Below, in pieces: positions 404 through 27,779 of a stretch of DNA of 64,000 nt. Numbering within the stretch: position 1 is the first letter of the stretch; each line of letters starts with the position of its first letter. Location: positions 192,001-256,000 of the IMG/VR virus record IMGVR_UViG_3300036958_000333, one strand, 5' to 3'. Made by a program: the position numbers and the translations under genes. Under the pieces are notes generated by a model, which was not told where the DNA came from, searched no databases, and saw nothing but the letters and a program-made list of their open reading frames with translations. Source of the DNA: a virus (taxonomy: Duplodnaviria > Caudoviricetes).

Positions 404-1666
404 ATGAATGAATTTGTACATATTCATTTACATACAGATTTTTCTTGCTTAGATGGATATTCTGATATAAAACAATATATTCAAAAAGCAAAAAAAAATA
501 ATATAAAATATTTTTCTGTTACAGATCATGGTAATTGCGCTTGTATTCCAAAATTAATACAAGAATGTAGGGAAAATGAAATAAAACCAATATTTGGATG
601 TGAATTTTATGTAAATAATTTTCATCATTTAGTTCCTAATTTTAAAAATTTATCTGATGAAGAAAAATATTTAGTAAAAAAGAACAATCATTTAATATTA
701 ATAGCTAAAAACGATATAGGTTATGAAAATCTAATAAAATTATCTTCTGAAAGTTGGATAAATGGATTTTATTATAAACCTAGAATATCACTTGATTTAA
801 TTAAAAAATATTCAGAAGGATTAATATGCACAACGGCATGTTTAGGATCAGAATTATCTCAATATATAATTAAAGAAAAATATAAAGAAGCAATAGATTT
901 AGTAAAAGAATACAAAGATATATTTGGAAAAGATTATTATTTAGAAATACAAATGATTAACATGAAAGAACAAGACGATGTCAATTCATATTTGATATCA
1001 TTATCAAATAAATTAGATATACCTTTGGTTCTAACTAATGATGTTCATTATTGTGAAAAGTCTGAATTTATTAATCAACAAATACTATTATTATTAAATT
1101 CTAAAGGAACAATAAGCAAGCCAGAAGGATTAGAGTTTCATACAAATCAGCTTTGGTATAAAACAATAGATGAATTAGACGAATTATGGGAAAATAATTA
1201 TAAATCAACTATACCTTTAGAAGAATATAAAGAATCAAAAATAAATACGGTAAAAATATGCGAAAAATGTAATGTTGTAATAGATACAAATCCAAAATTT
1301 CCAAAAATAGAAAATGCAGAAAACGAAATATCAGAAAGATGTATAACTGCAATGAAAAAGAAAGGGTTATATAAAAATAAAATATATCGAGATAGATTTT
1401 TAAAAGAATATGAGGTTATATTTTCTAAAAATTATTGTTCTTATTTTATGGTAGTAACAAAAATTATAGAATATGTTAAAAACGAATTAAAAGAACAAGT
1501 AGGTCCTGGAAGAGGAAGTTGTGGTGGAAGTTTGATATGTTATTTGTTAGGAATAACGCAAGTAGATCCAATTAAACATGAATTATTTTTCGAAAGATTT
1601 TTATCTAAAAGTCGCGGCGGTAAATTTGCAAAACTACAATTTGAAGAAAAAGACGAAATAATATGA
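404..1666 (+). CDS. dnaE: DNA polymerase III alpha-like, N-terminal fragment (PHP domain + first part of palm)
   Basis: PHP motifs HIHLHTDFS..DG, VTDHG, GCEFY, HLILIAKN..GY.NL, TACL, TNDVHY. Palm motifs VGPGRGSCGGSLICYLLGITQVDP and FERFL..R. Stops before PDIDxD. Confidence 0.95.
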   Translation: MNEFVHIHLHTDFSCLDGYSDIKQYIQKAKKNNIKYFSVTDHGNCACIPKLIQECRENEIKPIFGCEFYVNNFHHLVPNFKNLSDEEKYLVKKNNHLILIAKNDIGYENLIKLSSESWINGFYYKPRISLDLIKKYSEGLICTTACLGSELSQYIIKEKYKEAIDLVKEYKDIFGKDYYLEIQMINMKEQDDVNSYLISLSNKLDIPLVLTNDVHYCEKSEFINQQILLLLNSKGTISKPEGLEFHTNQLWYKTIDELDELWENNYKSTIPLEEYKESKINTVKICEKCNVVIDTNPKFPKIENAENEISERCITAMKKKGLYKNKIYRDRFLKEYEVIFSKNYCSYFMVVTKIIEYVKNELKEQVGPGRGSCGGSLICYLLGITQVDPIKHELFFERFLSKSRGGKFAKLQFEEKDEII

Positions 1667-2265
1667 AAACAATAATTGTACAAAACGATAATCCAATGGA
1701 CTGTTTAATATATATAATAGATAATTTTATAGAAAACAGTCCTATGTATATAGAAACAGATTTAAATAATATTGATGTTTCTAGTGATTTTTTTAACAAA
1801 TATAAATCAATGTTTAAATGGCATTTCAATGATTCTTTTAGATCTGTTTTGGTTAAAATGAAAAGACCTTTAACAAAATATGAGTTTTCATATTATAATA
1901 GAATATATGACTATTTCGGAGTAAATCAAGAAGAAATAATATCTAGAAATTTTAATAACATAATTTGTAATTGGGATTCTAAATCTGATTACAAAAATCA
2001 TCCAAAACCATGTTTTTTAACAGCAAAATTTATACAAGAAAAAGAATATATACATTTATCTATAACGTTCAGAACACGAGATATTATTAAAAGATTATAT
2101 CCAAACTGGATAGCGTTAAGAATTTTTTTTCAAAAAATATGTGATAAACATTGTAAAAAAATGGGAAAACTATTTGATTTTTCTAATCAAATAATCTGTG
2201 ATTCGAATAAAAGAAATCAAATAATGAATCTAGAAGAATATATAAATTATAAGCGACAGTATTAA
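1663..2265 (+). CDS. Divergent thymidylate synthase-fold protein (pyrimidine C5 methyl/hydroxymethyl transferase-like)
   Basis: YYNRI..YFGVNQ, W...D, catalytic PC, FRTRD (RSxD equivalent), YPNW (Asn specificity position). ATGA overlap with the dnaE-N stop. Confidence 0.65.
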   Translation: MKTIIVQNDNPMDCLIYIIDNFIENSPMYIETDLNNIDVSSDFFNKYKSMFKWHFNDSFRSVLVKMKRPLTKYEFSYYNRIYDYFGVNQEEIISRNFNNIICNWDSKSDYKNHPKPCFLTAKFIQEKEYIHLSITFRTRDIIKRLYPNWIALRIFFQKICDKHCKKMGKLFDFSNQIICDSNKRNQIMNLEEYINYKRQY

Positions 2266-2284
2266 TATCAATAATTATAAAAAT

Positions 2285-3223
2285 ATGGATAAATATAGGA
2301 AAATATATATAAACATTAATTCCAAATGTAACTATAATTGTATCGGTTGTTTAATGAGTAAAAATTATAGAAATAAACTTGATTTTATAAGTTTAGATAA
2401 TATAAAAAATATAATAGAAAATAAATTAAACAAATTGGTAAATGATAATTGTAAAAATATATATGAGATAAGTGGTGGAGAGCCGACTCTACATCCAAAT
2501 TTTAAAGAAATATCCAAATATATTCACGAAATACCAAATTCATATAAAACCGTTTTATTAACAAATGGAGATAAATTATCAGATAATAATTTTTCTAATG
2601 AAATATCAAAATATTTAGATGATTTTGTAATTTCTTTTTATTCTATAGATAAAAAACAACAAGATGAAATTACAAAAGTGAAAGGGTCTTGTTCAAATAA
2701 ATTAAAAGCTATAGAAAATATAATTCAATTAAATAAGAAAGTTCATATAAAAACAATAGTATCTGCCAAAACATATAAATCAATACCTGAAATAGCTGAA
2801 TTTTTTGGAAAATTATATGGTAATAAAATACATTTTACAATAAATTCAATACATTTGATTGGAGAAGCTTGGAATAATAAAAATAATCTTGCTATAAAAT
2901 ATACTGATTGTAGTCATTATATTGAAAAAGCAATAGATATAGCGTCATTATATAAAATGACTGTTAGTTTGTTTTTTCCTGCATGTATGATAGATCCAGC
3001 GTATTGGGAATTTCTTCCTATTAATTATGTAGAATCTATAAAAAGATCATATTCAATAACGCCAAATGGAGAATTAAATAAAGCTGGATTATTATTAGAT
3101 GAATTTATAAATAAAAACAAAACATGCAATGAATGTATAATTAAAGATAGGTGTAATTGGCCATGGGAAGAGTATATAAAAATATTTGGCGATAATGAAA
3201 TAATTAAAGGAGTAATAAAATAA
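2285..3223 (+). CDS. Radical SAM enzyme with C-terminal Cys cluster (HxsC/SPASM-like maturase type)
   Basis: CNYNCIGC (CxxxCxxC), SGGEPTLHP, LLTNG, C-terminal PAC...CNECIIKDRC. Confidence 0.9.
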   Translation: MDKYRKIYININSKCNYNCIGCLMSKNYRNKLDFISLDNIKNIIENKLNKLVNDNCKNIYEISGGEPTLHPNFKEISKYIHEIPNSYKTVLLTNGDKLSDNNFSNEISKYLDDFVISFYSIDKKQQDEITKVKGSCSNKLKAIENIIQLNKKVHIKTIVSAKTYKSIPEIAEFFGKLYGNKIHFTINSIHLIGEAWNNKNNLAIKYTDCSHYIEKAIDIASLYKMTVSLFFPACMIDPAYWEFLPINYVESIKRSYSITPNGELNKAGLLLDEFINKNKTCNECIIKDRCNWPWEEYIKIFGDNEIIKGVIK

Positions 3224-3224
3224 T

Positions 3225-3374
3225 ATGAATAATAATAAAAATAAAAAAAATAAAAATACAATCATGGTGTTTTCTAAAAAACGAAAATGTTTTATAAAAT
3301 TCGATGTAGTTCCAAATAAAATTAAAAAAGAGCTAATCGAAAATATTGGATGCAGTAATTCAGATTATGGTTAG
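3225..3374 (+). CDS. Unannotated 49-aa peptide MNNNKNKKNKNTIMVFSKKRKCFIKFDVVPNKIKKELIENIGCSNSDYG
   Basis: Hand-translated. ATG lies 1 nt after the rSAM stop and the ORF fills the gap to the next gene. Confidence 0.55.
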   Translation: MNNNKNKKNKNTIMVFSKKRKCFIKFDVVPNKIKKELIENIGCSNSDYG

Positions 3375-3386
3375 AAAGATATATAA

Positions 3387-4841
3387 ATGTTAAAAAAATG
3401 GATTTATGATAATTTATATGATTATAAAAAATCACAATTAACACCATCTAGATGTAATTTTAACTGGTTTAAAAAGAGAAATTTAGAAAACTATTATTAC
3501 AAAATAATAGAAAGTACTGGTTTTTTAGACAAAAATTCGGAATTAAAAGAAAGAATATATTATATAACTAATAATATCAATAAACAAATAACTTGTAAAA
3601 ATTGTGGAATTAATATAAAATATTATAGGAAATTCTGTTCTACAAAATGTTCAAGTAAATCTATAGAAGTTAGAAATAAAACCGCAAAAACGAATATGAA
3701 AAAATATGGAAATTCATGTTCTTTAAATAATGAAATTGTTAATTATAAAAAAAACAAAACATGGTTAAAAAAATATGGATGTAATCATATATTTCAAAAT
3801 GAAAAAATTAAATTAAAAATACAAAATACATTAAGAAAGAAACACAACAATGATTTAATAACAAACCAAGGACAAGTTCATTTAACAAAAGATATAATAG
3901 AGAAAATTAACAGTAAAGAATTTTTATATAATGAATATGTTATAAATAAAAAAACATATTCAGAAATAGCTAGGGATGTTGGAGTAAGCACAAGAACTAT
4001 ATGGCTACATGCAAAAAGTTTTAACATACAATCGAGAACAAGCTCGTTTAGATCATCTTATGAAAATGATATAATGAGCTTCATTCCTAGTAATTTTATA
4101 ATATTAAAGAATGTAAAAGACATAATACCACCATATGAACTAGATTTATATCTTCCTGATTATAAGTTAGCGATTGAATTTAACGGAATATATTGGCATT
4201 CACATAATAATGAAAAAAATAATGTAATAAATAGACATTATATAAAAACAAAACTATGTAAACGAAAAAATATTAAATTATTACATATATTTGAAAACGA
4301 ATGGATAAATAAAACAAAAAGACAGGTATGGAAATCAATAATTAATAATAAATTAAATAAAAATATATCATTAAATATTAATGATTGTAATATACAAGAT
4401 ATAAAAGATATAAATATTATAAATAATTTTATAAATGATAACAGCATAACATGTTTAGATAAATTTAATTTATGTGTTGGATTATATAATAATAATGAAC
4501 TATTGTCTATTTTATATGGATATTATAAAAATAACAAATTAATTTCTGATTTTTGTACTAAAAACAATCATTTTATAAAAAATTCAAAAAAAGCATTAAT
4601 TGATTTTTTTATACAAAAATATAAACCATATAAAATAATAACAAAAATAGATTTAAGATATAATGATATAACTGACTATGAAGAATTAAATATGAAATAT
4701 ATAAGATATGAAAAACCAACATTTATGTATATAAAAAATAATAAATTTTATGGCGAAAAAAATATAAATCCTATATTTGAAAATGAATATAGAAAAATAT
4801 GGAATTGTGGTAAAATTATTTTAGAATGGAGAAGTAATTAA
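3387..4841 (+). CDS. Putative free-standing homing endonuclease (PD-(D/E)XK type) with Zn-ribbon, KKYG repeats and HTH
   Basis: CKNC...FCSTKC, TNMKKYG/TWLKKYG repeats, HTH YSEIARDVGVSTRTI, nuclease core ELDLYLPDYKLAIEFNGIYWH. Confidence 0.7.
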   Translation: MLKKWIYDNLYDYKKSQLTPSRCNFNWFKKRNLENYYYKIIESTGFLDKNSELKERIYYITNNINKQITCKNCGINIKYYRKFCSTKCSSKSIEVRNKTAKTNMKKYGNSCSLNNEIVNYKKNKTWLKKYGCNHIFQNEKIKLKIQNTLRKKHNNDLITNQGQVHLTKDIIEKINSKEFLYNEYVINKKTYSEIARDVGVSTRTIWLHAKSFNIQSRTSSFRSSYENDIMSFIPSNFIILKNVKDIIPPYELDLYLPDYKLAIEFNGIYWHSHNNEKNNVINRHYIKTKLCKRKNIKLLHIFENEWINKTKRQVWKSIINNKLNKNISLNINDCNIQDIKDINIINNFINDNSITCLDKFNLCVGLYNNNELLSILYGYYKNNKLISDFCTKNNHFIKNSKKALIDFFIQKYKPYKIITKIDLRYNDITDYEELNMKYIRYEKPTFMYIKNNKFYGEKNINPIFENEYRKIWNCGKIILEWRSN

Positions 4842-4843
4842 AT

Positions 4844-5614
4844 ATGTCTAAAAAAGAAAGATTAGAAAACGATGGAGAAAAAAGAATTATTAATAAAACA
4901 GATCTTCGAACAGATACTGCGACAAAAAGAGTTTACATTCATAGGGATTATATCGCTCATGTATTAAGATATACTCATGTTGTTAAATGGTTTCAGAAAT
5001 TAAAAAACAGAAAAGACAATTTAAATATTTTAGATATGGGTTGTGGAAAAGAATTTCCTATATTAAGAATGTGTTATACTAATAAATTAAAACCACAATA
5101 TTATCTTGGTTTAGATATAAGAAAATTAAATTTTGATGAATTTCATAAAGAAATGAAACCTAATTTTGATTATGAATTTCAGCAATATGATTTTATTAAT
5201 CCTTTACCAAAATGTAAAAACGGAAATTGGGATTTTATTATATTTTTAGAAGTTTTAGAACATAATTCTAAAGAAGCAGGTATAAAAATATTAGAAAATA
5301 TTAAAAATATAATGAATCCAGATACAATATTTATTATGTCAACTCCATCATTTAATGGAAAAGCCGCTGAAAATCATATATATGAATGGGAATATCAAGA
5401 ATTAAAGCAAGAATTAGAAAAAACATTTATTATAGAAAATCATTATGGGACATTTGCGTCTCAAAAAGATATAGAAAATGTTATGTCTGATTGTGAAAAA
5501 GAAATATATGAAAAATTAAAAGATTATTATGATAGCAATTTCTTGTCTGCTGTTTTTGCACCAATTCACCCATATGCGTCTCGTAATTGTTTATGGAGAC
5601 TTAGATTAAAATAA
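4844..5614 (+). CDS. Class I SAM-dependent methyltransferase
   Basis: ILDMGCG motif I, YLGLDI, FLEVLEH, MSTP, HIYEW. Confidence 0.85.
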   Translation: MSKKERLENDGEKRIINKTDLRTDTATKRVYIHRDYIAHVLRYTHVVKWFQKLKNRKDNLNILDMGCGKEFPILRMCYTNKLKPQYYLGLDIRKLNFDEFHKEMKPNFDYEFQQYDFINPLPKCKNGNWDFIIFLEVLEHNSKEAGIKILENIKNIMNPDTIFIMSTPSFNGKAAENHIYEWEYQELKQELEKTFIIENHYGTFASQKDIENVMSDCEKEIYEKLKDYYDSNFLSAVFAPIHPYASRNCLWRLRLK

Positions 5615-7220: not shown

Positions 7221-8111
7221 ATGAACATTTATGTTAATACTGGCGGAGTAGAAGCTTTAATTATTACTGATAATTTAAAAAAATGGATAAAAAATACAGA
7301 TTATAATAATTCTGGATATGTTGATTTCAAGATATCTAAAGTATTTAAAAATATAGAATTTAATTATATTAGTATTTATAATTTTAATGAAATATTTAAA
7401 TCACTTGATTATAATAAAATATTTTGTTTTGGAAATAAAATTTATTTAAAATCGAAAAATAATTATTATTTAATAATAAGTTTGTCTAAATTTGGGTATT
7501 TTAGTGAAGATAAAAAGTCCAAACATTATATAATGTTTAAAATAAACGATGTTCCTTTATATTATAATGATATTTTATATTTTGCAGATACAATATCTTT
7601 TTTAAACAACGAAAACATTCCATATAATATGTATAGTCAAATTAAAAATTCTTTAGAATGGAGAGATGAAGATGCTGCATTTAAATTTACAAGAAAATGT
7701 AGAATGTCTGATAAAAGATTAAATCTACCAATATTTAGATGTATGATAAATAATAGAATTATACAGGGTATTAATGATATTTATGCAAGTGAATCATTAT
7801 TTGAATCAAAAATTCCTATAAATAAAAAGATAAAAGATTTACATGATAGAAAAATATTTGAAATAATATCAAAATGCCAAGAAATAATGAGAAAAAGCTA
7901 TATGTTAGGAGGATTTATAGAAAAAGGGCGCGAAAGTCTTGGGCCAAAAGGATATGGTAAAAAAATATTAAAAGTTTATGGAAAAAAAGGAAAACTATGT
8001 GAAAATTGTAAATCTGGAATTATACAATCAAAAAAAATTAAACTATCAAAAAACACTTTTATAAAAATGTATTATTGTCCAATTTGTCAATCGGAGAAAA
8101 ACAATGAATAA
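7221..8111 (+). CDS. Fpg/Nei (MutM-like) DNA glycosylase homolog lacking the catalytic N-terminal Pro-Glu
   Basis: H2TH-like IQGINDIYASESLF; Fpg Zn finger VYGKKGKLCENC...YYCPICQ. N-terminus is MNIYVNTGGVE rather than MPELPEVE. Confidence 0.8.
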   Translation: MNIYVNTGGVEALIITDNLKKWIKNTDYNNSGYVDFKISKVFKNIEFNYISIYNFNEIFKSLDYNKIFCFGNKIYLKSKNNYYLIISLSKFGYFSEDKKSKHYIMFKINDVPLYYNDILYFADTISFLNNENIPYNMYSQIKNSLEWRDEDAAFKFTRKCRMSDKRLNLPIFRCMINNRIIQGINDIYASESLFESKIPINKKIKDLHDRKIFEIISKCQEIMRKSYMLGGFIEKGRESLGPKGYGKKILKVYGKKGKLCENCKSGIIQSKKIKLSKNTFIKMYYCPICQSEKNNE

Positions 8112-12776: not shown

Positions 12777-14084
12777 TTGGAAAAATTAAAAAAAATAGCA
12801 ATTGAAAAATCAAAAGATAATAAGAAATATATAAAAAGATTAAATATTGAATTTGAAGAAATAGATAAGGCCGGTTTATGGAACTATTTCAAAGAAATAA
12901 TTAAATCAAATAAAAAATTTCATAATACTAATAATTTATTATGTGCATACTTGTGGGGAATATGTCCTGAAAATCCAATAGATAAAGACGAAGAATTAAA
13001 ATGGTACTATAGTAATGAATATCCAGATATAGACGTAGATTTTTCTCCAGAATCTAGAGATAAAATAAAAGAATTTTGCGCAAAAGAATTTGGAGAAAAT
13101 AATGTTGTATCAATAGCAAATTATAATCATTTTGGAATAAAATCCGGAATAAGAGACATTTCAAGGGTATTAGAAATACCATTAGAAGAGGTAAATGAAT
13201 GTACAACAAAACTAAATGATGATGTAAATGACATGAAATGGGAAGATGCTATAAAAACATATCCCGTACTGGAACAATTTGAAAAAGAACACCCAAAAGT
13301 ATGTGAATTAGTCAAACAATTTAATGGAAAAGTAAGATCTATAGGAAAACATGCTGGAGGATTAGTAATATCATCTTGTGATTTAACTAAAACAATACCG
13401 TTAATAACAAGAGAAAATCCAGAAAGTGATAAAAAATTTATATTATCTTCATTTTCAGAAGGTCAAAATAGATCTGATTTAAAAACAATGGGTTTAATAA
13501 AACAAGATATACTTGGATTAGATAATCTAAACTATATAAGTACTTGTTTAAAATATATGGAACAAAGAGGAAAATATGATCCTAAAAAGGGAATATTTAG
13601 AACAAAAGAAGACGGAGAAAATTGGGAAGATGAATCATATTTAAACGATCCAGAGTCAATAAAAGTAGCAAATAATGCAGATTTACAGCTTGTATTTCAA
13701 TTTGATTCTGATGGAATAAGAAAATTAGTTAAAAAAACTGGGGTTAATAATTTTTATGATTTAGTAGTATTTAATGCGCTGTATAGGCCTGGTCCTTTAA
13801 ACTGTTTGGAAGAAAATACTAAAATACTTACAAATAATGGATATGTTGAAATAAAACTTCTATCAAATAAACATAATAAAATTGCCTATATAGACAATAA
13901 TGGAAATATTAAGTATACATCCAAATTTATAGTAAAAAAGAAAAATAAAACAAAAAAAATATTAAAAATATCAACGAGTGAAAATGAAATATTATCTTCA
14001 TTAGATCATAAGTTTCTTAATAAAGATAATAAATTTATTGAAGCAAAAAGATTAAAAATTAATGATGAAATAAAAACAATATGA
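12777..14084 (+). CDS. dnaE: DNA polymerase III alpha-like, middle fragment (catalytic palm/fingers) fused to an N-terminal split-intein half
   Basis: TTG start after AAGGA. YPDIDVDF, IGKHAGGLVIS, KQDILGL, VFQFDS.G, ALYRPGPLN, then CLEENTKILTNNG. Confidence 0.95.
   Translation: MEKLKKIAIEKSKDNKKYIKRLNIEFEEIDKAGLWNYFKEIIKSNKKFHNTNNLLCAYLWGICPENPIDKDEELKWYYSNEYPDIDVDFSPESRDKIKEFCAKEFGENNVVSIANYNHFGIKSGIRDISRVLEIPLEEVNECTTKLNDDVNDMKWEDAIKTYPVLEQFEKEHPKVCELVKQFNGKVRSIGKHAGGLVISSCDLTKTIPLITRENPESDKKFILSSFSEGQNRSDLKTMGLIKQDILGLDNLNYISTCLKYMEQRGKYDPKKGIFRTKEDGENWEDESYLNDPESIKVANNADLQLVFQFDSDGIRKLVKKTGVNNFYDLVVFNALYRPGPLNCLEENTKILTNNGYVEIKLLSNKHNKIAYIDNNGNIKYTSKFIVKKKNKTKKILKISTSENEILSSLDHKFLNKDNKFIEAKRLKINDEIKTI
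13803..14081 (+). mobile_element. Split intein N-half (IntN, 93 aa)
   Basis: Block A CLEENTKILTNNG, block B SSLDHKF, ends FIEAKRLKINDEI-stop. Confidence 0.92.
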
Positions 14085-14968
14085 AAAGAATTCCATGGAA
14101 TAAAGGTCTAAATAAATATAATAATAAAACAATGGCTATAATAGCTGAAAAAGTAAAAAAATCTTATGATAAAAAAAGAAGAAAAGAATATTCTGATAAA
14201 TTAAAAGAAAAATATAAAAACGGCGATATATTAACTCCAGAAAAAAGAAGAAAAGTAATATTATGTGGATCTAAAGCTTGGGCTAATAAAGTAAAAAACG
14301 CTTCACTAGAAGAAAGGAAAAAAATATTATTTAATTTTATTACTGCTGGAAATAATGCTCAAAAAGAAAGAAGAAAACATCTAACTCCAGAAGATTATCA
14401 AAGATTATATCCGTTTGCGAAAGGAATAGCGAAATATTATAATTGCGATAATTGTGGAAAAAAAGTAATAAAATGGTTTGGTGGTAAAAAAAGATCAAAT
14501 AAAAGATTTTGTTGTAGAAAATGTTATACCGACTTTTTAAGAAAAAATCCATCATATGGAATAAATAACAAAAAACAAATTCTTTTTTATTCTAAAAAAA
14601 TGTTATGTCATTTTAAACTTTTATCTAGTTTAGAAAAATATATAGCAAATATATTAGAAGAATCAAAATGGATAAAAACATGGAGCGCAAACTCTATATG
14701 TATTCAATATGTTGATAAAAATAAAAAGAAAAGAAGATATTATCCTGATTTTTTCTTTAATGATAAATACATTTTAGAAGTAAAATCAAATTATGTAGAA
14801 AATATAAATAAAAATAAAGATAATTTAAATAATAAAAAAATGGAAGCTAGAAAATACTGTAAAAAAAATGGATTTGTATTTTTATATTGGAAATTTAATA
14901 AAACAGATGAAAAAAGTGTTATAAAAGATCGTAGAATTAAATTTTTATTTGGCGAAATAAATCAATAA
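14081..14968 (+). CDS. Free-standing homing endonuclease between the intein halves (NUMOD3-like + Zn finger + TnsA-like PD-(D/E)XK)
   Basis: PWNKG, CDNC...FCCRKC, SSLE...RRYYPDF...ILEVKS. ATGA overlap with the IntN stop. Confidence 0.8.
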   Translation: MKRIPWNKGLNKYNNKTMAIIAEKVKKSYDKKRRKEYSDKLKEKYKNGDILTPEKRRKVILCGSKAWANKVKNASLEERKKILFNFITAGNNAQKERRKHLTPEDYQRLYPFAKGIAKYYNCDNCGKKVIKWFGGKKRSNKRFCCRKCYTDFLRKNPSYGINNKKQILFYSKKMLCHFKLLSSLEKYIANILEESKWIKTWSANSICIQYVDKNKKKRRYYPDFFFNDKYILEVKSNYVENINKNKDNLNNKKMEARKYCKKNGFVFLYWKFNKTDEKSVIKDRRIKFLFGEINQ

Positions 14969-14982
14969 TACAAAATAAAATC

Positions 14983-15117
14983 ATGATTAAAATAAAAAAA
15001 ATACAATCAATAAAAAAATTAGAAGAAAAACAAACATGTTATGATATATGTTTATTAGAAAAAGATACATATATTAATGAATCTAATTTTATAGCAGAAG
15101 GTTTTATAGTTCATAAT
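14983..15117 (+). mobile_element. Split intein C-half (IntC, 45 aa)
   Basis: MIKIKKIQSIKK...CYDI...NFIAEGFIVHN followed by Ser+1 (15118-15120). Confidence 0.92.
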
Positions 15118-16614
15118 TCTGGAATGGCAAATGCTTATACTGAAAGAAGAAATGGAAAAAAAGATTATAAGACACATGAAATATTAGATAAAATAATAGG
15201 AGACACACAATATGTTATAATATATCAAGAACAATTATTAAAAATAATGAATGTTATTGGAAATATTTCTTTACAAGACTGTGAAATGATAAGAAAAGCA
15301 ATGGCCAAAAAAAGAGAAAAAGAATTCATAAAATATAAAGAAATATTTATTGAAAATGGACAAAAAACCCTAGAATGGAGCAAACAAGAAATAGAAGAAT
15401 TATGGAATCAAATGATTACATTTGCAGATTATGGATTTAACAAATCTCACTCTGTTGCATATACTATGATATCTTCAAGATGTTTATATTTAAAGACTCA
15501 TTATCCAGAAGAATATTTTGCTGCAGTTTTAACGCATTTAAAAACTGGAGATGAAAGAATAAAAAAGTATATACAAGAAGGAGAAAAAAAAGGACTTGTA
15601 TTTATACCGTTAGATATAAATAAATCCAAAACAGGATTTATACCAACAGAAAATGGAATTATAATAGGATTTGATAAAATAAAAGGAATCAAAAAAGAAG
15701 CCATAGAATTAATAAACTTACAACCATTTCATTCTTTTGAAGATTATTTAGAAAGATATGGATTATCAAAAATAACTGCAGAAATATTAATAAAGGCAAA
15801 TGCTTTTAAAAATTTTGAAAATAATATTAAAATATTATTAGAATATTTTAATTATAGAAGAAGCATAAAAGAATCTGATTGTGGAATGGGTAAAAATGAT
15901 TTTGGAAAAATGTTTAAAGAAATAAAAGGATTAAAATCATGCCCTAAGAATATCTATGAACAATTTTTACAATTATGTGATAATAAAAGTAAAATAAAAT
16001 ATAATATATTATTAGATTTTATTAAAAATAATAAATTTGATTTTACAGAAATAGACAAAAACACAATTTTAGAATATATTGAAAAACATAAAAATATATT
16101 TAACTTATCTATAATGACATTAGAAGAATTTAAAAAACAACAACATATTCAAGAAATATCTGATTTTTCATATGAAGAAAAATGTGAATTTGAAGAAAAA
16201 CTATATTCTTTTTATTTTAATCATCCAATAGAAAATTATCAAATAGAAGGAAAACAAATATCAGATGTTATAGAAAATGATTTGGGAGGAATTATTGAAG
16301 GAATAATAAAAGATATAGTAAAAAAGAAAACAAAAAACGATAATTCATATTATATTTTAACTATAGAAGATAAATATGATCAAATTAAAGTTTTACTATG
16401 GTCAAATCAATATAATAAGTATAAAGATATAATATATAAACAATCTGCTATAAGATTAAAAATTAAAAAAAGCCCTTATTCAGCATATAATTTATCAGAT
16501 GATGAAAATATTAAAAGAATAAGGAAAAAAGACGAATTATCTGAAAAAAAAGAAAAAGAAATAAAATTAAAAGAAGAATTTGAAAAACTATTAATAGATT
16601 TAGATAATAAATAA
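14983..16614 (+). CDS. dnaE: C-terminal split-intein half + DNA polymerase III alpha C-terminal fragment (fingers, HhH, OB-fold)
   Basis: IntC, then SGM...IYQEQ, IRKAMAKK, YGFNKSHSVAY, YLKTHYPEEY, LDINKS, GFDKIKGI and a C-terminal OB-like region. Confidence 0.95.
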   Translation: MIKIKKIQSIKKLEEKQTCYDICLLEKDTYINESNFIAEGFIVHNSGMANAYTERRNGKKDYKTHEILDKIIGDTQYVIIYQEQLLKIMNVIGNISLQDCEMIRKAMAKKREKEFIKYKEIFIENGQKTLEWSKQEIEELWNQMITFADYGFNKSHSVAYTMISSRCLYLKTHYPEEYFAAVLTHLKTGDERIKKYIQEGEKKGLVFIPLDINKSKTGFIPTENGIIIGFDKIKGIKKEAIELINLQPFHSFEDYLERYGLSKITAEILIKANAFKNFENNIKILLEYFNYRRSIKESDCGMGKNDFGKMFKEIKGLKSCPKNIYEQFLQLCDNKSKIKYNILLDFIKNNKFDFTEIDKNTILEYIEKHKNIFNLSIMTLEEFKKQQHIQEISDFSYEEKCEFEEKLYSFYFNHPIENYQIEGKQISDVIENDLGGIIEGIIKDIVKKKTKNDNSYYILTIEDKYDQIKVLLWSNQYNKYKDIIYKQSAIRLKIKKSPYSAYNLSDDENIKRIRKKDELSEKKEKEIKLKEEFEKLLIDLDNK

Positions 16615-18003: not shown

Positions 18004-18579
18004 ATGAAAATAAAAAATATTAATGAAATTGTACCTACAATTTCTTTATTAAATGAAGAAGAAAAACAAAACGCAAAAAAAGAATGGTATACTATTTTAC
18101 ATGAAATGTTTGATTGGCAAAGAATGTTTGGAGATTATTGTTTTAAAAAAAATAATATAAAAGACAATGACGGAAATATATTAGAATTTAATACAATATT
18201 TAAAGAATTTCAAGAAAAAAAATTCGGACCAAATGATCTCCCAAACGAATGGATAAAAAAATTTCACGAATGTATGGTAAAAGAATTAGAAGAAATAGAA
18301 GAATTATTACCATGGAAACATTGGTCTAAAGAATCTATTGGAGAAAAAACATATAAAGATTTAACAAAAGACGAAAGACTAGGAATGTTAAAAATAGAAC
18401 TTGTTGATATATGGCATTTTTTAATGAGCGCTATGATGTGTGTTGGAATGGGACCAAAAGAATTACATGAATTGTATATTTCTAAAAATAAAGTTAATTT
18501 TGAAAGACAACAAAAAGAATATAATACAGCTAATAAAAACGAAGATGATAATATAAATATAACAAAAAAAATTAACTAA
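18004..18579 (+). CDS. Dimeric all-alpha dUTPase/dCTPase
   Basis: ELEE..E.LPWKHW, ELVDIWHFLMS, YISKNKVNFERQ. Confidence 0.88.
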   Translation: MKIKNINEIVPTISLLNEEEKQNAKKEWYTILHEMFDWQRMFGDYCFKKNNIKDNDGNILEFNTIFKEFQEKKFGPNDLPNEWIKKFHECMVKELEEIEELLPWKHWSKESIGEKTYKDLTKDERLGMLKIELVDIWHFLMSAMMCVGMGPKELHELYISKNKVNFERQQKEYNTANKNEDDNINITKKIN

Positions 18580-19373
18580 ATTTTATAAAATTTATTATTT
18601 GAATATTCCATAAGTTGAAGTATTTTATTTGTTTTTTTCATATTAATCTCGTCTCTCCATATTCGTAATCTTGTATATTTTTTCAACAAATCTGAATAGA
18701 TTTTAATAAAATCTTTATTAATAAAATGATCTATTATATGTACTGAAAATTCATTACCAGAATTATAAATCATTTCTATTCCATCTAGAAATTCATGCAT
18801 ATTAAACATCTTTCCAGTAGGATGACAAGAAACTATAAATTTTATTTTTTTATTTATAATTTTTTTTAAATTATTAATATTATATATTGAAGTAAACAAT
18901 AATATATTTTTAGAATATTCTAAAAGTATATCAATTATTTTATTAATATTTTTATGCAACAAAGGTTCGCCTCCAGCTACTTCTATTATTAAATTAGAAT
19001 TAGGAAAATTAACTTTAAAATCATTAAATAATTTTAAAGTTAATTCTACTGGAATACTTTCTTTCGATAAATTGTTTGGATATTTTACACCACAATATAC
19101 ACAATCATTAAGACAAGTAGTAACTGGATGAAAACTCATTCTTATTATAGAATTATTATATTCACTTGTCTTTTCTGATCTAGTAGTATATGATAAATCA
19201 CAATCTATCTTGCATTCTTTATAATATTTACAACTAAAATCATTGCATAATTTAAAATTATTTTTTATTGAATATATCTCTATATTTTTATGAAAAAACT
19301 TATGGCATCTAAATACTTTCCAATCATCTGTTTTTTCAATAACAAACCAATTATTTCCTGCAGAACAATACAT
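18576..19373 (-). CDS. Radical SAM protein with N-terminal SPASM/twitch-like Cys domain
   Basis: N-terminal CSAG..WFVI...VFRCH...C..C..C..C, then CLNDCVYC and AGGEPLLH. Confidence 0.8.
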   Translation of the reverse strand: MYCSAGNNWFVIEKTDDWKVFRCHKFFHKNIEIYSIKNNFKLCNDFSCKYYKECKIDCDLSYTTRSEKTSEYNNSIIRMSFHPVTTCLNDCVYCGVKYPNNLSKESIPVELTLKLFNDFKVNFPNSNLIIEVAGGEPLLHKNINKIIDILLEYSKNILLFTSIYNINNLKKIINKKIKFIVSCHPTGKMFNMHEFLDGIEMIYNSGNEFSVHIIDHFINKDFIKIYSDLLKKYTRLRIWRDEINMKKTNKILQLMEYSNNKFYKI

Positions 19374-22820: not shown

Positions 22821-23789
22821 TTATTTTAATTTATTTACTTGTTTTTCAATCCAAGGATATGTCTTTTTTATACCATCTTCTAGATTATATTTAGCTTTCC
22901 ATCCTAACGAATATATCTTTTCATTGCTAAAATTTCTAGATTCTACACCAACAGGTCCATCAATGTAATTTATATTAATCTTCTTTTTAGCCACTTTTGC
23001 TACAACATTAACTAAATCATTAACAGATGAATATTCTGGAGATCCTATATTAACAGGGACAGAAATATCAGAATCTACTAATAAAATAATACCGTCAATT
23101 AAATCATCAATATAAGTATAACTACGAACAGCTTGTCCTAAGCTGTTTGGATTACTCCATATATCTATAGTTCCTCCATCTTCTACTTCTGCAACTTTCC
23201 TACATATTGCTGCTGGAGCTTTTTCTTTTTTATTATTCCAAGCTCCATATGGACCATAGGTATTCTGAAATCTAGCTATTCTAGGATGAAAACCATACTT
23301 TCTAGCATAATTTAATATTAAACGTTCAGCATATAATTTTTCCCATCCATATTCATTTTCAGGAATTGCCGGATAAGAATCTTCTTCCTTTAATTCAGGT
23401 TCACCTATTTTCATATCTCTATAAACACAAACAAATGAAGAAAAGAAATATTTTGGAATACCCAGTTTAGATATAGAATTAATTATATTAACATTAATTA
23501 ATGTATTATCATAAACAATTTCTTGTTCTTTATTAAAAATCCAACCCATTCCCCCCATGTTTGCTGCAAAATTAAAACATATATCACATGGTTTTCCATT
23601 TATCAATAATGAATCATAACAATTTTCTGAAAATCTTAAATCTAGTATTTTAAACTCATCAACTGGTATATTTCTAAATTCATGATATTTAATATCTACT
23701 CCTCTCACAAAGTATCCTAATTCTTTTAATTTATAACAAATATGTCCTCCAATAAATCCTCCTGCTCCACAAACAACTGCTTTTTTCAT
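22821..23789 (-). CDS. NAD-dependent epimerase, GDP-mannose 3,5-epimerase-like
   Basis: GAGGFIG, AANMGGMG, YGWEKL (YxxxK), KAPAAICRKV. The GGAGG SD favours start 23789 over 23801. Confidence 0.88.
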   Translation of the reverse strand: MKKAVVCGAGGFIGGHICYKLKELGYFVRGVDIKYHEFRNIPVDEFKILDLRFSENCYDSLLINGKPCDICFNFAANMGGMGWIFNKEQEIVYDNTLINVNIINSISKLGIPKYFFSSFVCVYRDMKIGEPELKEEDSYPAIPENEYGWEKLYAERLILNYARKYGFHPRIARFQNTYGPYGAWNNKKEKAPAAICRKVAEVEDGGTIDIWSNPNSLGQAVRSYTYIDDLIDGIILLVDSDISVPVNIGSPEYSSVNDLVNVVAKVAKKKININYIDGPVGVESRNFSNEKIYSLGWKAKYNLEDGIKKTYPWIEKQVNKLK

Positions 23790-23804
23790 TAATTCCTCCA
23801 TAAT

Positions 23805-24752
23805 TTATATATTTAAATAAGTTTCTATCTTATTTATTAAATTTCCTACATTTATATTTTTAAAACAATATGGTATATCATAATTTTTTCTATGACAATT
23901 GGATAATATCCTACACGGACAAGATTTTATTATATTTTTATATTTTATTTGATCATCATCTTTTAATTGTATTATTTTCATAGAATTTTGTTTAGTTATT
24001 ATTCTTGGAATAGTTGGTCCAAAAATTCCAACAACATTATTATTTTTGAAAGCACTAGCTATATTTAAATATATATTATCTGTACAAATTATATATTTTG
24101 AATTACTCATAATATCAAATATTTCATTTAAATTTAAAAAATATTTTAATATTTTTTTAGCCCAATAATCATTAGAATAATCAAAAAATGGTATTGCTAA
24201 TATTTTAATATCAAAACCTTTAATAATAAAATGATCATATATTTTTTTTTCTATTTCTTCTGGCAAAGCTGTTTTTTTATAACCGTTACAACAAATTATC
24301 ATTGATTTATTATTTAAATTATTATATAACATAGATATGTTTAAAGGATACTCTATTCCAATTTCTTTTGATAGTTCTATATGATTTGTATAAATAGAAT
24401 CATAACTTATTATTTTATAAACATGAAGTGGTTTTGAGTTTTTATGAAGATTATAATATTTAATAGGTTCTAAAATCCAATTTTTTAAATTTTCACTACA
24501 AGATATGAATATATCTAAATCTATATTATTATTTTTACAATGATTATATAAAGCAAGAGATAAAAGTAATGTTTGTATAAATATAATTAAATCAAAACCT
24601 TCATATTTAAAAACTATTTTTTTATTTTCAGATATATATATAGGCAAAGGATAATTATTAATTGTTTCCTTTTTTCTAATATTTAACTTATTTAATTTTA
24701 TCATTATTAAAAAATAAGAAAATTTCAATAAATATTTTATATAATAAAACAA
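23805..24752 (-). CDS. GT9 (heptosyltransferase-like) glycosyltransferase, divergent
   Basis: IICTDN..LNIASAF....VVGIFGPT and a C-terminal CPC...C...C. Start may be the later MIKLNK. Confidence 0.65.
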   Translation of the reverse strand: MFYYIKYLLKFSYFLIMIKLNKLNIRKKETINNYPLPIYISENKKIVFKYEGFDLIIFIQTLLLSLALYNHCKNNNIDLDIFISCSENLKNWILEPIKYYNLHKNSKPLHVYKIISYDSIYTNHIELSKEIGIEYPLNISMLYNNLNNKSMIICCNGYKKTALPEEIEKKIYDHFIIKGFDIKILAIPFFDYSNDYWAKKILKYFLNLNEIFDIMSNSKYIICTDNIYLNIASAFKNNNVVGIFGPTIPRIITKQNSMKIIQLKDDDQIKYKNIIKSCPCRILSNCHRKNYDIPYCFKNINVGNLINKIETYLNI

Positions 24753-24789
24753 ATAAATTGAATATTATTCATAATAATTTTAATTATTT

Positions 24790-25599
24790 TTACATTTTTT
24801 TAAAAAAGTTTTTTCTTTTATTTTTTCTTTTATTTAATAATTTATTGAAATCATATGTATAATATTTTTCTTTATTTTTACTAATTTCTAAAAATGCAAT
24901 ATGAATAATATCTGTTACAGGAGGTATTTTATTAAAATCTTCAGTAAAAGTTTTATCTGAAATATTTAAAAAACATGATTTAAAAATATTATTAGTATCA
25001 AAACTAAATATGTTTAACGTTTTATATTTTATTAAATGATATGCCATTAATTTTTCATCTTCACAAGACCATTTTGCTATTCTATCAATAAATTCATAAT
25101 ATTTGTTTGCTCTATCTAAGGAGATCATAATATCTGATTTGTTTTTCAATTCATTTTTTAATTGTTTTATAAAAAATTTAAAATATTTCTGCGAAAAACA
25201 TATATGACAAAATCTAATATAACTTCCTTCATTATTTTTTAAATCAATTATACTAAAATAAGATAATACAAATTTATCTTTTATATTATAGTTTTTATTT
25301 TCATTTAAATAATTTTTTAATTTTAATACTTTTTTTTTATATTCAGTACAATTAATATTTAATATAATATCAATATCTAAAATAACATAATAATCATATT
25401 TATCTAGTAAATTATCATTTATAGAAAGTAAAGTACAAAACCTTTCAATCCAAACATTATTTATACCTTTAATATTGTTTTCTAACAATATACAGTCATA
25501 TCCTTTTTGTTTACATATATTTTCTTGTATTTTATATGCGCTGTAATAATCATTATAAAATTCATTCTTGCATATTGAAAATATACATAAAATTGACAT
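24790..25599 (-). CDS. Putative GT-A glycosyltransferase (GT34-like), paralog of 20529-21329
   Basis: Start MSILCIFSICK matches the paralog's MSVLCIFSICK; YDYYVILDID. Confidence 0.6.
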   Translation of the reverse strand: MSILCIFSICKNEFYNDYYSAYKIQENICKQKGYDCILLENNIKGINNVWIERFCTLLSINDNLLDKYDYYVILDIDIILNINCTEYKKKVLKLKNYLNENKNYNIKDKFVLSYFSIIDLKNNEGSYIRFCHICFSQKYFKFFIKQLKNELKNKSDIMISLDRANKYYEFIDRIAKWSCEDEKLMAYHLIKYKTLNIFSFDTNNIFKSCFLNISDKTFTEDFNKIPPVTDIIHIAFLEISKNKEKYYTYDFNKLLNKRKNKRKNFFKKM

Positions 25600-25613
25600 A
25601 TATATATATATGT
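25596..25613. promoter_or_regulatory. 18-bp palindrome ACATATATATATATATGT containing both divergent start codons
   Basis: CAT at 25597-25599 and ATG at 25610-25612 are separated only by (AT)5. Confidence 0.55.
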
Positions 25614-26647
25614 ATAATTTTTTAAACTTAAATTTTAATGAATATAAAGACAAAATTGCCTTGGTTTATAGTTCTTTTTATATTTTTCCAGAAAATGTTG
25701 TATTAAATGAAGTTAATAATTTAGATAGACAAATAGAAATATGTAGAAATATAGAGTACAAAGAGAATTGGAAAGGTAGAGGAATAGTTATATCTTGTGG
25801 AAAAGATCATTACTATTTATTATATATTCAATTAAATATATTAAGAGATTTAAATATTAATTTACCTATAGAAATATGGAATTATCCAGATGAAATAGAT
25901 AACAATATAAGAAACAAGTTCTTGTCATATTTTAATTCGTTAGATATAGAATTTAGAGAATGTTTAGATACAAAATTTATTTGTCATAGATTTAGAGGAT
26001 GGATGATTAAAAATTATGCAATGTTTCATAGCAAATTTGAAGAAGTTATACAACTAGATGTTGATAGTTTTCCTCTTGTTAATCCAGAAAACCTATTCGA
26101 ATTAGAAGAATATAAAAAATATAAATGCATATTTTGGAATGATAGTAAACTATATAGTTCTAATAACAATATAATTATATGGTTAAATTTTAATAAAAAA
26201 AGCCAAATATGGAAATTTTCAAATGTTGAATATAATGATAATTTTCCAACATTAGAAGTCGGACAAGTCTACATAAATAAAAAATATCATTATTTACCAA
26301 TGTTATTGTCTTTGTACATAATAGAAAGATCCGACTTCTATTTTCATATATTTTACGGTGATAAAGATGTTTTTAATATCATATTTCATAGAATCAATAT
26401 TCCATTCGAATACTTAAATATATATCTTATTAATAATAATATTGGATTTTTAATATGCAAAAAATCATTAAATGAAAAATATTTTATTCATATGTCATTT
26501 GGGAATGCAAAGCTTAATAATATATTAAATATTAAATACAATAATAATTCTTTTTTATCACAAGAATTAAATATTATTTATAATTACTTTAATGAATTTG
26601 ATAATTTTATAAAACAAAAAAGTAATGTTTTTTTTAATAAATTATAA
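25610..26647 (+). CDS. GT71 / Mnn2-like alpha-mannosyltransferase
   Basis: GRGIVI, LPIEIW, K..AM..SKFEEV..LDVDSFPL.NP..LF, FWND, EVGQVYINK, YGDKD.F. Confidence 0.8.
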   Translation: MYNFLNLNFNEYKDKIALVYSSFYIFPENVVLNEVNNLDRQIEICRNIEYKENWKGRGIVISCGKDHYYLLYIQLNILRDLNINLPIEIWNYPDEIDNNIRNKFLSYFNSLDIEFRECLDTKFICHRFRGWMIKNYAMFHSKFEEVIQLDVDSFPLVNPENLFELEEYKKYKCIFWNDSKLYSSNNNIIIWLNFNKKSQIWKFSNVEYNDNFPTLEVGQVYINKKYHYLPMLLSLYIIERSDFYFHIFYGDKDVFNIIFHRINIPFEYLNIYLINNNIGFLICKKSLNEKYFIHMSFGNAKLNNILNIKYNNNSFLSQELNIIYNYFNEFDNFIKQKSNVFFNKL

Positions 26648-26821
26648 AATTATTTAATTTCATTTTTTAAAATTATTATGTGGTTATATAAATATAAATA
26701 TAATTAAATCAATATTCTATATTTAAAATTTTTTACAAAAAATAATAATTAATTTTTATATATCTTACTTATTTATATTATAAAAAAATAAATTTATACT
26801 TTAATAAATATTTTATATAAA

Positions 26822-26986
26822 ATGAATGAATTAAATAAATTTAATTTACTAATAGATAATTTTGATATCGAATTAAAGGAATATAAAATAGAAGAAAAAA
26901 TATTAATTATTGAAATTTTATTTTTATTATTAAATCAGACAGAATTTACGGAATTTTTATTTAAAGAAGAAAACAATATTGCGTAA
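26822..26986 (+). CDS. Small hypothetical protein (54 aa), not in the ORF track
   Basis: Hand-translated MNELNKFNLLIDNFDIELKEY...; overlaps the amidoligase start. Confidence 0.4.
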   Translation: MNELNKFNLLIDNFDIELKEYKIEEKILIIEILFLLLNQTEFTEFLFKEENNIA

Positions 26987-27779
26987 AACTGGAATAGAAA
27001 TTGAATTTGCAGATGTTAATATTTTTAATAAAAAAATATGCAAAGAGATATTTGTTAATTTAAAACTTCCATGTAATGAAAAAAACAACGATTTATATAA
27101 TCAGTGGATAGTTAAAGATGATCCAACATGTGGTTTTGAGATTAATACACCAATAATATATTCTAATAATGATTTTTATAATTTAAAGATTGTATTAAAA
27201 GAAATAAAAAAAACATATAAAGAAGAAGAAATAATAAATAAAGATTGTGGATTACATGTGCATATCGATATATCAAATTTTGTTAATGTAAAACAGTTTT
27301 TATATTTATTACAAATAACTAAAATACTTGAAAATACAATTATATTTAAAATTACAAACAAAACAAGAATAAGAAATAAATATTGTAAAAAAATATGTTA
27401 TTATAGCAAAGTTAAACAATGTTTAAATAACGATCTTAAAAAATTTTCTAAAAATATAAACAAATTACCAAAAAATTCCGGATTAAGTATAAAATCATAT
27501 AGCACTCTTGGTACAGCAGAATTTAGATATTATCAATCAACATTAAATTATTATGAAATAATAAATTGGATAAATTTTTTACAAAAAATAATTGATTTTA
27601 TATTTGATAAAAATAATATAAAATGGTTAGATAATAACTATTATAAAATAATGAATAAAACAAAAAAAATTAGCCATAAAAAAATATTTAAAATTCTTAA
27701 ATTAAATAGAGAAACTATTAATTTTATACAAAAAAAGGTTAAAGAAAATGTACGGAATGTTTTATGTAAAAAAAAATAA
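26979..27779 (+). CDS. Putative amidoligase (COOH-NH2 ligase type 2)
   Basis: GIEIEF, W.VKDD.TCGFEI.TP, CGLHVHI, TAEFR. Confidence 0.85.
   Translation: MRKTGIEIEFADVNIFNKKICKEIFVNLKLPCNEKNNDLYNQWIVKDDPTCGFEINTPIIYSNNDFYNLKIVLKEIKKTYKEEEIINKDCGLHVHIDISNFVNVKQFLYLLQITKILENTIIFKITNKTRIRNKYCKKICYYSKVKQCLNNDLKKFSKNINKLPKNSGLSIKSYSTLGTAEFRYYQSTLNYYEIINWINFLQKIIDFIFDKNNIKWLDNNYYKIMNKTKKISHKKIFKILKLNRETINFIQKKVKENVRNVLCKKK

Follow-up and report, generated by a model that had tools for sequence, protein, structure and literature searches.

A mini thymidylate synthase gene paired with a Hen1-like methyltransferase gene in a jumbo phage: a candidate route to a modified DNA pyrimidine

Results

Gene content of the locus

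The stretch of phage DNA analysed here (positions 404-5614) holds two unrelated things: a conserved module of two genes, one for a short enzyme of the thymidylate synthase (TS) fold that we call mini-TS and one for a Hen1-like methyltransferase, and an insertion of about 2.6 kb that splits this module in this phage only. It lies in a 64,000-nucleotide segment of IMG/VR record IMGVR_UViG_3300036958_000333, referred to below as the window, which is strongly A+T-rich (16-32% G+C). The methyltransferase of the window is recorded on a contig of 272,848 bp, and the DNA accordingly derives from a metagenomic jumbo phage. The mini-TS gene (1663-2265) and the methyltransferase gene (4844-5614) enclose genes for a radical S-adenosylmethionine (SAM) enzyme (2285-3223), a 49-amino-acid peptide (3225-3374) and a homing endonuclease (3387-4841), all on the plus strand. 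A prediction made earlier from the letters of the sequence had joined the TS-fold, radical SAM and methyltransferase genes in a single base-modification operon and had overlooked both the endonuclease and the peptide. The observation behind this original prediction is partly confirmed, and its interpretation partly supported, by the analysis reported here.

Directly upstream, and relevant only as context of the module, is dnaE-N (404-1666, plus strand), the N-terminal piece of a split DnaE polymerase, with the PHP domain and the start of the palm (PF02811, E=2e-49; PF07733, E=6e-27). Its TGA stop codon at 1664-1666 overlaps the mini-TS ATG at 1663 in an ATGA, as read directly in the DNA, and the overlap of the two genes that had been described earlier is real. 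DnaE is spread over three open reading frames (ORFs; 404-1666, 12777-14084 and 14983-16614). A block of other genes of about 11 kb separates the first piece from the second, and the studied stretch opens this block.

The mini thymidylate synthase

Mini-TS (1663-2265, plus strand) is 200 amino acids long. Its product had no Pfam match at E<=0.01, the gathering threshold of PF00303 not being reached, and no PHROG match. TIGR03283, the methanogen-type TS family of NCBIfam, gave 38.4 bits (E=8.8e-10), short of its curated cut-off of 174.55 bits, and was matched by 32 of 32 aligned mini-TS family members. Alignment to short-form TS with hhalign reached 99.9% probability (E=6e-33) over residues 67-193 and 127 columns, and the family profile matches T4 TS in register (E=2.4e-7). 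A profile search of the whole library returned about 36 mini-TS representatives of 180-207 amino acids, followed by short-form TS, ThyA and DHFR-TS at E=1e-10 to 1e-3. No relative was found by tblastn in 50,697 phage records, or in IMG/VR scans with four family queries (A1, P0021, P0027 and P0015).

An AlphaFold model made with the 32-sequence alignment has a pLDDT of 96.6 and supersedes one from a seven-sequence alignment (pLDDT 54). It matches 396 PDB chains at Z>=8, all of those listed being TS-fold enzymes, with 175-185 of its 200 residues aligned. The VIA-align Z score is 18.0 to 9iqu (HY126 AfhB; 181 residues, rmsd 2.8 Å, 8% identity), 17.7 to 9iqc, 17.3 to MilA and about 15 to ThyA. Sequence and model agree with the original assignment to the TS fold. 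The closest relatives of mini-TS are archaeal short-form TS enzymes by sequence and, judged by the modelled fold, AfhB tied with MilA.

Among the 32 family members Y77 and D140 are invariant, C117, R137, R139, N148 and the pair W53-H54 are conserved in at least 90%, and R144 is nearly invariant. The conserved motifs are P116-C117, R137-x-R139-D140, P147-N148 and Y77, in which Y77, D140, C117, R137 and N148 align with Y94, D169, C146, R166 and N177 of TS. N148, the counterpart of the uracil-selecting Asn177, is therefore retained. The catalytic Pro-Cys, the R-x-x-D and the uracil-selecting Asn, all read earlier from this one gene, are conserved across the family, and from such conserved residues mini-TS is predicted to be catalytic and to act on uracil.

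Other hallmarks of TS are gone. The H-x-Y deoxyribose motif (His207-x-Tyr209) had already been reported missing, and indeed S-N-Q-I-I replaces the D-x-H-x-Y region; the phosphate-binding R-R pair (Arg126'/Arg127') is missing too, with N98-N99 in its place. N98 is invariant in seven close relatives and variable in the wider family. Short-form TS retains R-R and H-x-Y, whereas the mini-TS family has lost both throughout, and beside this loss it gains R139 and R144. Mini-TS also lacks the folate-closing C-terminal tail, the protein ending about 25 residues past S-N-Q-I-I. At the position of L143 in E. coli TS, mini-TS has P114 rather than an acidic residue, and the family is variable there but non-acidic. 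The D169N and N177D changes of flavin-dependent 5-hydroxy-dCMP synthase are not found in mini-TS, which keeps D140 and N148.

Short TS domains in Thermodesulfobacteriota and Cyanobacteriota (ESM Atlas) are fused to a pterin-binding DUF4346 and an MtrA-like domain, which suggests that a separate carrier domain supplies the one-carbon unit to TS enzymes of the short form.

The methyltransferase and its TS partners

The partner of mini-TS (4844-5614, plus strand) is a Hen1-like class I SAM-dependent methyltransferase of 256 amino acids (PF13489, PF13847), in line with its first description as a class I enzyme. Alignment with 25 homologues leaves 34 invariant residues, among them E136-V-L-E139-H140, S-T-P and N177-H178. 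Among proteins of solved structure, the family profile comes closest to a rickettsial lysine methyltransferase (E=1.5e-8), followed by plant HEN1 (E=4e-7) and bacterial Hen1 (E=2e-6). There is also weak similarity to UbiG and CmoB-type enzymes. The motifs E-V-[IL]-E-H, S-T-P-N and N-H-x-x-E align with the metal-site motifs of HEN1 and bacterial Hen1, and H178 aligns with the H-containing F-E-W region of both. By HEN1 structures we take E136, E139, H140 and H178 to be metal ligands, the metal presumably activating the acceptor hydroxyl. The protein is thus a predicted metal-assisted O-methyltransferase.

This family is far larger than that of mini-TS, with more than 435 matching database clusters and 294 relatives in IMG/VR. 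We fetched 80 viral loci of these 294 relatives, and 68 have a TS homologue within about 3 kb on the same strand, a fraction that overstates the number of independent events because many of the 80 loci are mutually syntenic. The 66 full-length TS partners at these loci all keep C146, R166 and D169 (TS numbering). In all 66 N177 is changed to Asp, and in 64 of them L143 is also Asp. These two changes form the signature of cytosine-specific (dCMP) hydroxymethylases (PMC13326640). The genes usually run from DUF932 and the methyltransferase through one or two MazG-like genes and the TS homologue to dCMP deaminase and family A polymerase.

The cytosine-type module occurs in phages of 40-60 kb, including the cultured Stenotrophomonas phage AXL3 and Pseudoxanthomonas phage PW916 (PMC9414467). 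In AXL3 a homologous methyltransferase is accompanied by a MazG-like gene, a kinase, a dCMP deaminase and a TS homologue that has the double-Asp signature, and AXL3 DNA is resistant to 35 of 37 restriction enzymes, namely all those with G/C in their recognition sites (PMC7504290). In the literature we found no description of this methyltransferase in hypermodification pathways, of 5-methoxymethyl bases or of the chemistry of AXL3 DNA.

One methyltransferase homologue, P0227 (434 amino acids), is fused to a uracil-DNA glycosylase domain (PF03167), which hints at a link between the methyltransferase family and uracil-related DNA chemistry.

Conservation of the gene pair

In seven other independent contexts the genes for mini-TS and the methyltransferase adjoin or overlap each other, in either order, and so form a conserved uncharacterised pair. 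Close relatives (L001, L002/L008, L006 and L007) share the order dnaE-N, mini-TS, methyltransferase, an 81-amino-acid ORF, FEN and Fpg-like gene, and in each of them the two genes abut or overlap. More distant mini-TS genes (23-40% identity) likewise adjoin or overlap a gene of this methyltransferase family in L009, L011, L104 and the contig of P0021; the methyltransferase is downstream in the first two and upstream in the others. Genes of deoxynucleotide metabolism stand close by in two of these: the P0021 contig runs dCTP deaminase, methyltransferase, mini-TS and full-length TS, and L011 has a MazG-like pyrophosphatase and a dCMP deaminase near the pair. In L003 a homologous endonuclease and two small unrelated ORFs separate mini-TS from the methyltransferase. 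A complex prediction for the two proteins scored 0.00, which counts neither for nor against their pairing. For the module, then, what the sequences show directly is how the genes are arranged and linked, which proteins they resemble and which residues are conserved.

The inserted cassette

The radical SAM enzyme (2285-3223, plus strand; 312 amino acids) is HxsC-like. Its identity, as first proposed, is borne out by the cluster C15-x3-C19-x2-C22 (CxxxCxxC) and by PF04055 (43.3 bits; cut-off 29.5). Its best NCBIfam match is TIGR03977 (HxsC) at 103.9 bits (E=7e-30), below the cut-off of 267.9 bits. The closest homologues are bacterial (41-47% identity, for example in Paludibacteraceae) and lie in peptide-maturation clusters.

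One base past the radical SAM gene begins the ORF of a candidate precursor peptide (3225-3374, plus strand; 49 amino acids), which ends I-G-C-S-N-S-D-Y-G; an AAGGAG sequence resembling a Shine-Dalgarno site lies 12 nt before its start. In five bacterial loci an ORF of 46-49 amino acids always lies directly downstream of the radical SAM homologue, and the window peptide and the five bacterial peptides share invariant G42, S44, N45, D47, Y48 and G49, a tail of the form G-x-S-N-x-D-Y-G. A blastp search against the ORFs of the window matched the 49-amino-acid ORF at E=3e-5. There are no His-Xaa-Ser repeats in the peptide. We regard the two genes as a maturase-precursor pair because the C-terminal motif matches the peptides that follow the bacterial homologues; judged from these sequences, the radical SAM enzyme is probably a peptide maturase with its own precursor and not a nucleotide enzyme.

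The third gene of the insertion (3387-4841, plus strand; 484 amino acids) encodes a Hef-like (DUF7487) homing endonuclease (PHROG 3339, E=4.4e-56; PHROG 559, HNH, E=2.5e-36; PF24308, E=2e-8) and is its mobile part. L003 holds a homologue of 32% identity in the same slot. Neither the radical SAM enzyme nor the peptide was found in any of the phage relatives that carry the pair. The neighbourhoods of homologues, which had been named as a check on the predicted three-gene operon, thus uphold its mini-TS and methyltransferase genes as a conserved pair and set apart the radical SAM gene, which belongs to an insertion and is missing from relatives that carry the pair.

The bacterial cluster runs from a methionyl-tRNA synthetase (MetRS) paralogue through a PP-loop enzyme, an amidohydrolase, the radical SAM enzyme and the 46-49-amino-acid ORF to two U32-family proteins, further radical SAM peptide maturases and Tpt1-like genes. 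Of this cluster the phage has taken up no more than the enzyme and the peptide: in the window we sought the amidohydrolase, the PP-loop enzyme, U32 proteins, the MetRS paralogue and Tpt1 and found none. In L021 (2779-11825; also in L015, L018, L020 and L022) the cluster includes a WbuX-like PP-loop protein, Amidohydro_2, a 46-amino-acid peptide, a UbiU/TrhP-like U32 pair, and a PapB-like and another radical SAM enzyme. AbiEii, BrxL or transposases are often close by. The cluster has the look of one that is as yet undescribed and serves defence or the making of a natural product derived from a peptide, and its extra MetRS may be a self-resistance copy. Elsewhere in the window two further ORFs have partial radical SAM matches (18576-19373, minus strand, E=1.6e-5; 36713-37549, plus strand, E=8.5e-7).

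Neighbouring genes

DnaE is split in the whole clade, but the inteins and endonucleases that it contains vary. Its first break in this phage falls directly ahead of the catalytic aspartates, and an ORF for a TnsA-like endonuclease (14081-14968) separates the middle from the C-terminal piece. The split differs among relatives: in L103 there are two pieces, with inteins, and in L001 it is the N-terminal piece that contains an intein. In the same two relatives a PrkA, DUF444 and SpoVR triad lies directly upstream of dnaE-N (L001, 422-6756; L103, 1-7257), and the SpoVR gene is broken by one or two LAGLIDADG inteins. The clade as a whole is unusually rich in inteins and homing endonucleases.

It had been suggested that a modified pyrimidine might account for both the remodelled polymerase and a degenerate Fpg. 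Neither proposal is supported by comparison with relatives. L103 has a two-piece split DnaE and no TS homologue within 10 kb of the slot that mini-TS occupies here. The Fpg/Nei-like protein (7221-8111) begins M-N-I-Y-V-N-T-G-G-V-E and has lost the N-terminal Pro-Glu, and thus the Pro nucleophile, in this phage only; L001, L006/L007 and L103 keep M-P-E-G-V-E, and L001, L006 and L007 have the same mini-TS and methyltransferase pair. Once the N-termini had been aligned we rejected a tie between Fpg degeneracy and the module.

Two further genes had been brought into the original picture from elsewhere in the window. The one at 18004-18579 (plus strand) does encode a dimeric dUTPase-like, all-alpha NTP pyrophosphohydrolase (PF08761, 34.8 bits, above the cut-off of 22.9; PHROG 173, E=1e-9) and is conserved in L007 at 60% identity. 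The NDT-like assignment of the gene at 43589 is weak, with 21 bits against a cut-off of 28.8. A cluster at 22821-27779, with an NAD-dependent epimerase/dehydratase, a mannosyltransferase-like glycosyltransferase and an amidoligase-like gene, may serve sugar or other tailoring chemistry.

Discussion

A proposed two-step pathway

We propose that mini-TS and the methyltransferase carry out a two-step pyrimidine pathway, in which a one-carbon unit is added at C5 and the product is then O-methylated and built into phage DNA. In this scheme mini-TS would bind a uracil nucleotide, most likely dUMP, which the dUTPase-like pyrophosphatase encoded at 18004 could supply if, as we suppose, that gene belongs to the module. 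Cys117 would attack C6 of the uracil and a one-carbon unit would be added at C5, giving most likely a 5-hydroxymethyl group or otherwise another group that bears a hydroxyl. The Hen1-like, metal-dependent methyltransferase would cap this hydroxyl with a methyl group from SAM. The resulting O-methylated 5-substituted deoxyuridine, for example 5-methoxymethyl-dU, would be phosphorylated and would replace some or all of the thymidine in the DNA. Substrate, cofactor, product and the entry of the modified base into DNA are all steps that we infer.

The linkage of the pair, its setting among genes of nucleotide metabolism, the residues that mini-TS retains and the cultured example of AXL3 all speak for this proposal. 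The methyltransferase pairs with both cytosine-type and uracil-type TS homologues and so most simply acts on the substituent that these enzymes install. It also combines the hallmarks of an O-methyltransferase with this pairing, so that the oxygen of the C5 substituent is most simply the atom it methylates. We would put the probability of the two-step pathway at about one half.

Several observations weigh against it, among them the synteny of many methyltransferase loci mentioned above. The pairing has gaps: in two short contigs (L005 and L010) there is no methyltransferase within about 1 kb of mini-TS, and L103, a related jumbo phage, has a methyltransferase of 63% identity in the same slot but no TS homologue within 10 kb. 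An unrelated 234-amino-acid protein (L103, 9159-9863) takes the place of mini-TS there, between dnaE-N and the methyltransferase. The loss of R-R and H-x-Y makes dUMP uncertain as the substrate of mini-TS, as well as its sugar-phosphate form, and the one-carbon donor is likewise uncertain in an enzyme that lacks the folate tail yet keeps D140. Hen1 enzymes methylate the ribose 2'-hydroxyl at RNA 3' ends, and the methyltransferase could therefore act on RNA. Finally, whether an enzyme of this fold makes a hydroxymethyl or a methyl product correlates with the presence or absence of an acidic residue at the L143 position (PMC13326640); with Pro at that position, a plain methyl product, dTMP, is still conceivable for mini-TS.

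One alternative is that mini-TS is the phage's plain thymidylate synthase, a short-form enzyme of archaeal type making dTMP for a genome of 79% A+T, and that the methyltransferase is unrelated to it and serves, for example, in 2'-O-methylation of RNA ends. The nearest family is indeed TIGR03283, matched by every one of the 32 members, and the hhalign match to short-form TS has E=6e-33. The catalytic Cys, Arg, Asp, Asn and Tyr are retained, the residue at the L143 position is non-acidic, the window has only 16-32% G+C, and Hen1 RNA methyltransferases are among the closest solved relatives of the methyltransferase. We still consider a plain TS unlikely. Its 38 bits fall far under the TIGR03283 cut-off of 174.55, the R-R pair and H-x-Y kept by short-form TS are lost family-wide, and on the P0021 contig mini-TS sits directly beside a full-length TS and so is no substitute for one there. 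Nor does chance explain why the gene overlaps a methyltransferase in both orders and across 23-55% identity, or why the methyltransferase family is linked to dCMP-hydroxymethylase-like genes. A flavin-dependent C5 hydroxylase of the AfhB and RB69 gp48 type, acting on dUMP, would offer the methyltransferase a different hydroxyl, that of 5-hydroxy-dUMP, to be turned into 5-methoxy-dUMP. The best structural matches of the model, 9iqu (Z 18.0, 181 residues) and 9iqc (Z 17.7), belong to this enzyme class, which is likewise short and has lost folate chemistry (PMC13326640), and the weak similarity of the methyltransferase to UbiG and CmoB-type enzymes would fit as well. Against this, AfhB and MilA differ by less than 1 in Z and so are tied, identity to AfhB is 8%, and the D169N change diagnostic of 5-hydroxy-dCMP synthases (PMC13326640) is not there, D140 being invariant. 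We judge such a hydroxylase improbable.

It is also conceivable that the two proteins together form a folate-independent C5-methylase, the Cys of the TS-fold half activating the uracil and the Rossmann-fold half donating the SAM methyl group. Mini-TS has no folate-closing tail, the two genes often overlap, and the phage methyltransferase takes the position that pterin-binding and MtrA-like carriers occupy in the fused bacterial short TS domains. However, the methyltransferase has the motifs of a metal-dependent O-methyltransferase, members of its family also partner full-length enzymes of the dCMP-hydroxymethylase kind, for which no methyl donor is required, and D140, whose counterpart in TS we take to be the pterin-contacting Asp, is invariant. 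A single active site split in this way over two proteins would be unprecedented, and we find this very hard to credit. The same is true, in stronger measure, of the model first put forward for the locus, in which the TS-fold, radical SAM and methyltransferase enzymes act in turn on one pyrimidine. The three genes do lie on one strand with short gaps, and radical SAM enzymes do join some thymidine hypermodification pathways (PMC8989533). No pair-carrying relative has the radical SAM gene, though; its homologues belong to bacterial peptide-maturation clusters, with a conserved peptide next to them as here, and a homing endonuclease flanks it. We give this sequence of steps almost no weight.

Implications

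Returning to the two-step pathway, it is tempting to extend it to the methyltransferase family at large, although we regard this broader picture as doubtful and offer it tentatively. The family and its TS partners may make widespread, undescribed phage bases, namely O-methylated 5-hydroxymethyl-pyrimidines: 5-methoxymethyl-dU here and 5-methoxymethyl-dC in AXL3-like phages. The partner might then be of the dCMP-hydroxymethylase type in hundreds of 40-60-kb phages and of the mini, uracil type in the present jumbo clade, with mini-TS a new functional branch of TS whose sugar-phosphate site has been remodelled.

Nearly all known pyrimidine hypermodifications of phage DNA begin with a TS homologue, and with each new tailoring enzyme a new base and new forms of restriction evasion have so far come to light. 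What is new here would be a variant of this TS-based chemistry, one that we infer for mini-TS with a Hen1-like methyltransferase. The methyltransferase is a candidate tailoring enzyme of a kind previously undescribed in such a role, tied to TS homologues in hundreds of viral contigs, and the idea can be tested now, since the cultured phages AXL3 and PW916 carry the cytosine-type version. A TS subfamily of 200 amino acids without the classical sugar-phosphate contacts to dUMP also bears on how far the TS fold can shrink and which one-carbon donor it then uses. The radical SAM maturase and its precursor, from a bacterial cluster with a second methionyl-tRNA synthetase, point to peptide-derived natural products carried by a phage.

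Comparison with known systems

In sequence, mini-TS most resembles the short-form TS enzymes (TIGR03283, MJ0757-like). Both are about 200 amino acids long, lack the C-terminal hairpin and tail of ThyA, and have Cys, R-x-x-D, Asn and Tyr-x-x-Arg in register. They differ in that the first 66 residues of mini-TS are unaligned, T-R-R gives way to N-N at the pair and A-H-I-Y to N-Q-I-I, and mini-TS has the extra R139 and a conserved W-H-x-x-D-S-x-R-S motif. The mini-TS family is, moreover, viral and paired with a methyltransferase. AfhB (HY126, 9iqu/9iqc) and RB69 gp48 are a precedent for a compact TS fold recruited to make a precursor for DNA hypermodification (PMC13326640). At the N177 position, however, mini-TS carries the uracil-type Asn where this enzyme class carries Asp, and at the D169 position the two residues are the other way round. 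No arabinosylation genes accompany mini-TS.

The radical SAM enzyme and its peptide recall HxsC and other pairs of the RiPP or peptide-cofactor type, where a small conserved ORF lies directly beside the enzyme gene, as in PqqE/PqqA and MftC/MftA; here it is directly downstream. In contrast to HxsC, the score of the cassette enzyme is under the family cut-off and the peptide has no His-Xaa-Ser repeats, and compared with the bacterial cluster the phage is without the MetRS paralogue, the PP-loop enzyme, the amidohydrolase and the U32 proteins.

Hen1, the small-RNA 3'-terminal 2'-O-methyltransferase, shares with the phage methyltransferase the class I fold and the E-V-[IL]-E-H, S-T-P-N and His motifs. 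The phage family has invariant motifs of its own, however, H-R-D-Y-x-A-H-x-x-R-W near the N-terminus and Y-Y-D-S-N and S-R-N near the C-terminus, and its profile matches HEN1 only at E=4e-7. It has neither RNA-binding domains nor a Pnkp partner, and its context is deoxynucleotide metabolism. In its logic the module is closest to those of the T4 gp42 type (dCTPase, hydroxymethylase, kinase and deaminase), where a 5-substituted nucleotide is first made by a TS homologue and then decorated by another enzyme. In the 40-60-kb phages, AXL3 and PW916 among them, the methyltransferase family is itself a part of modules of this type. Compared with the T4 gp42 type, the TS partner in the jumbo phage is a mini, uracil-type enzyme, non-acidic at the L143 position, and the decorating enzyme would be a methyltransferase in place of a glycosyl- or carbamoyl-transferase.

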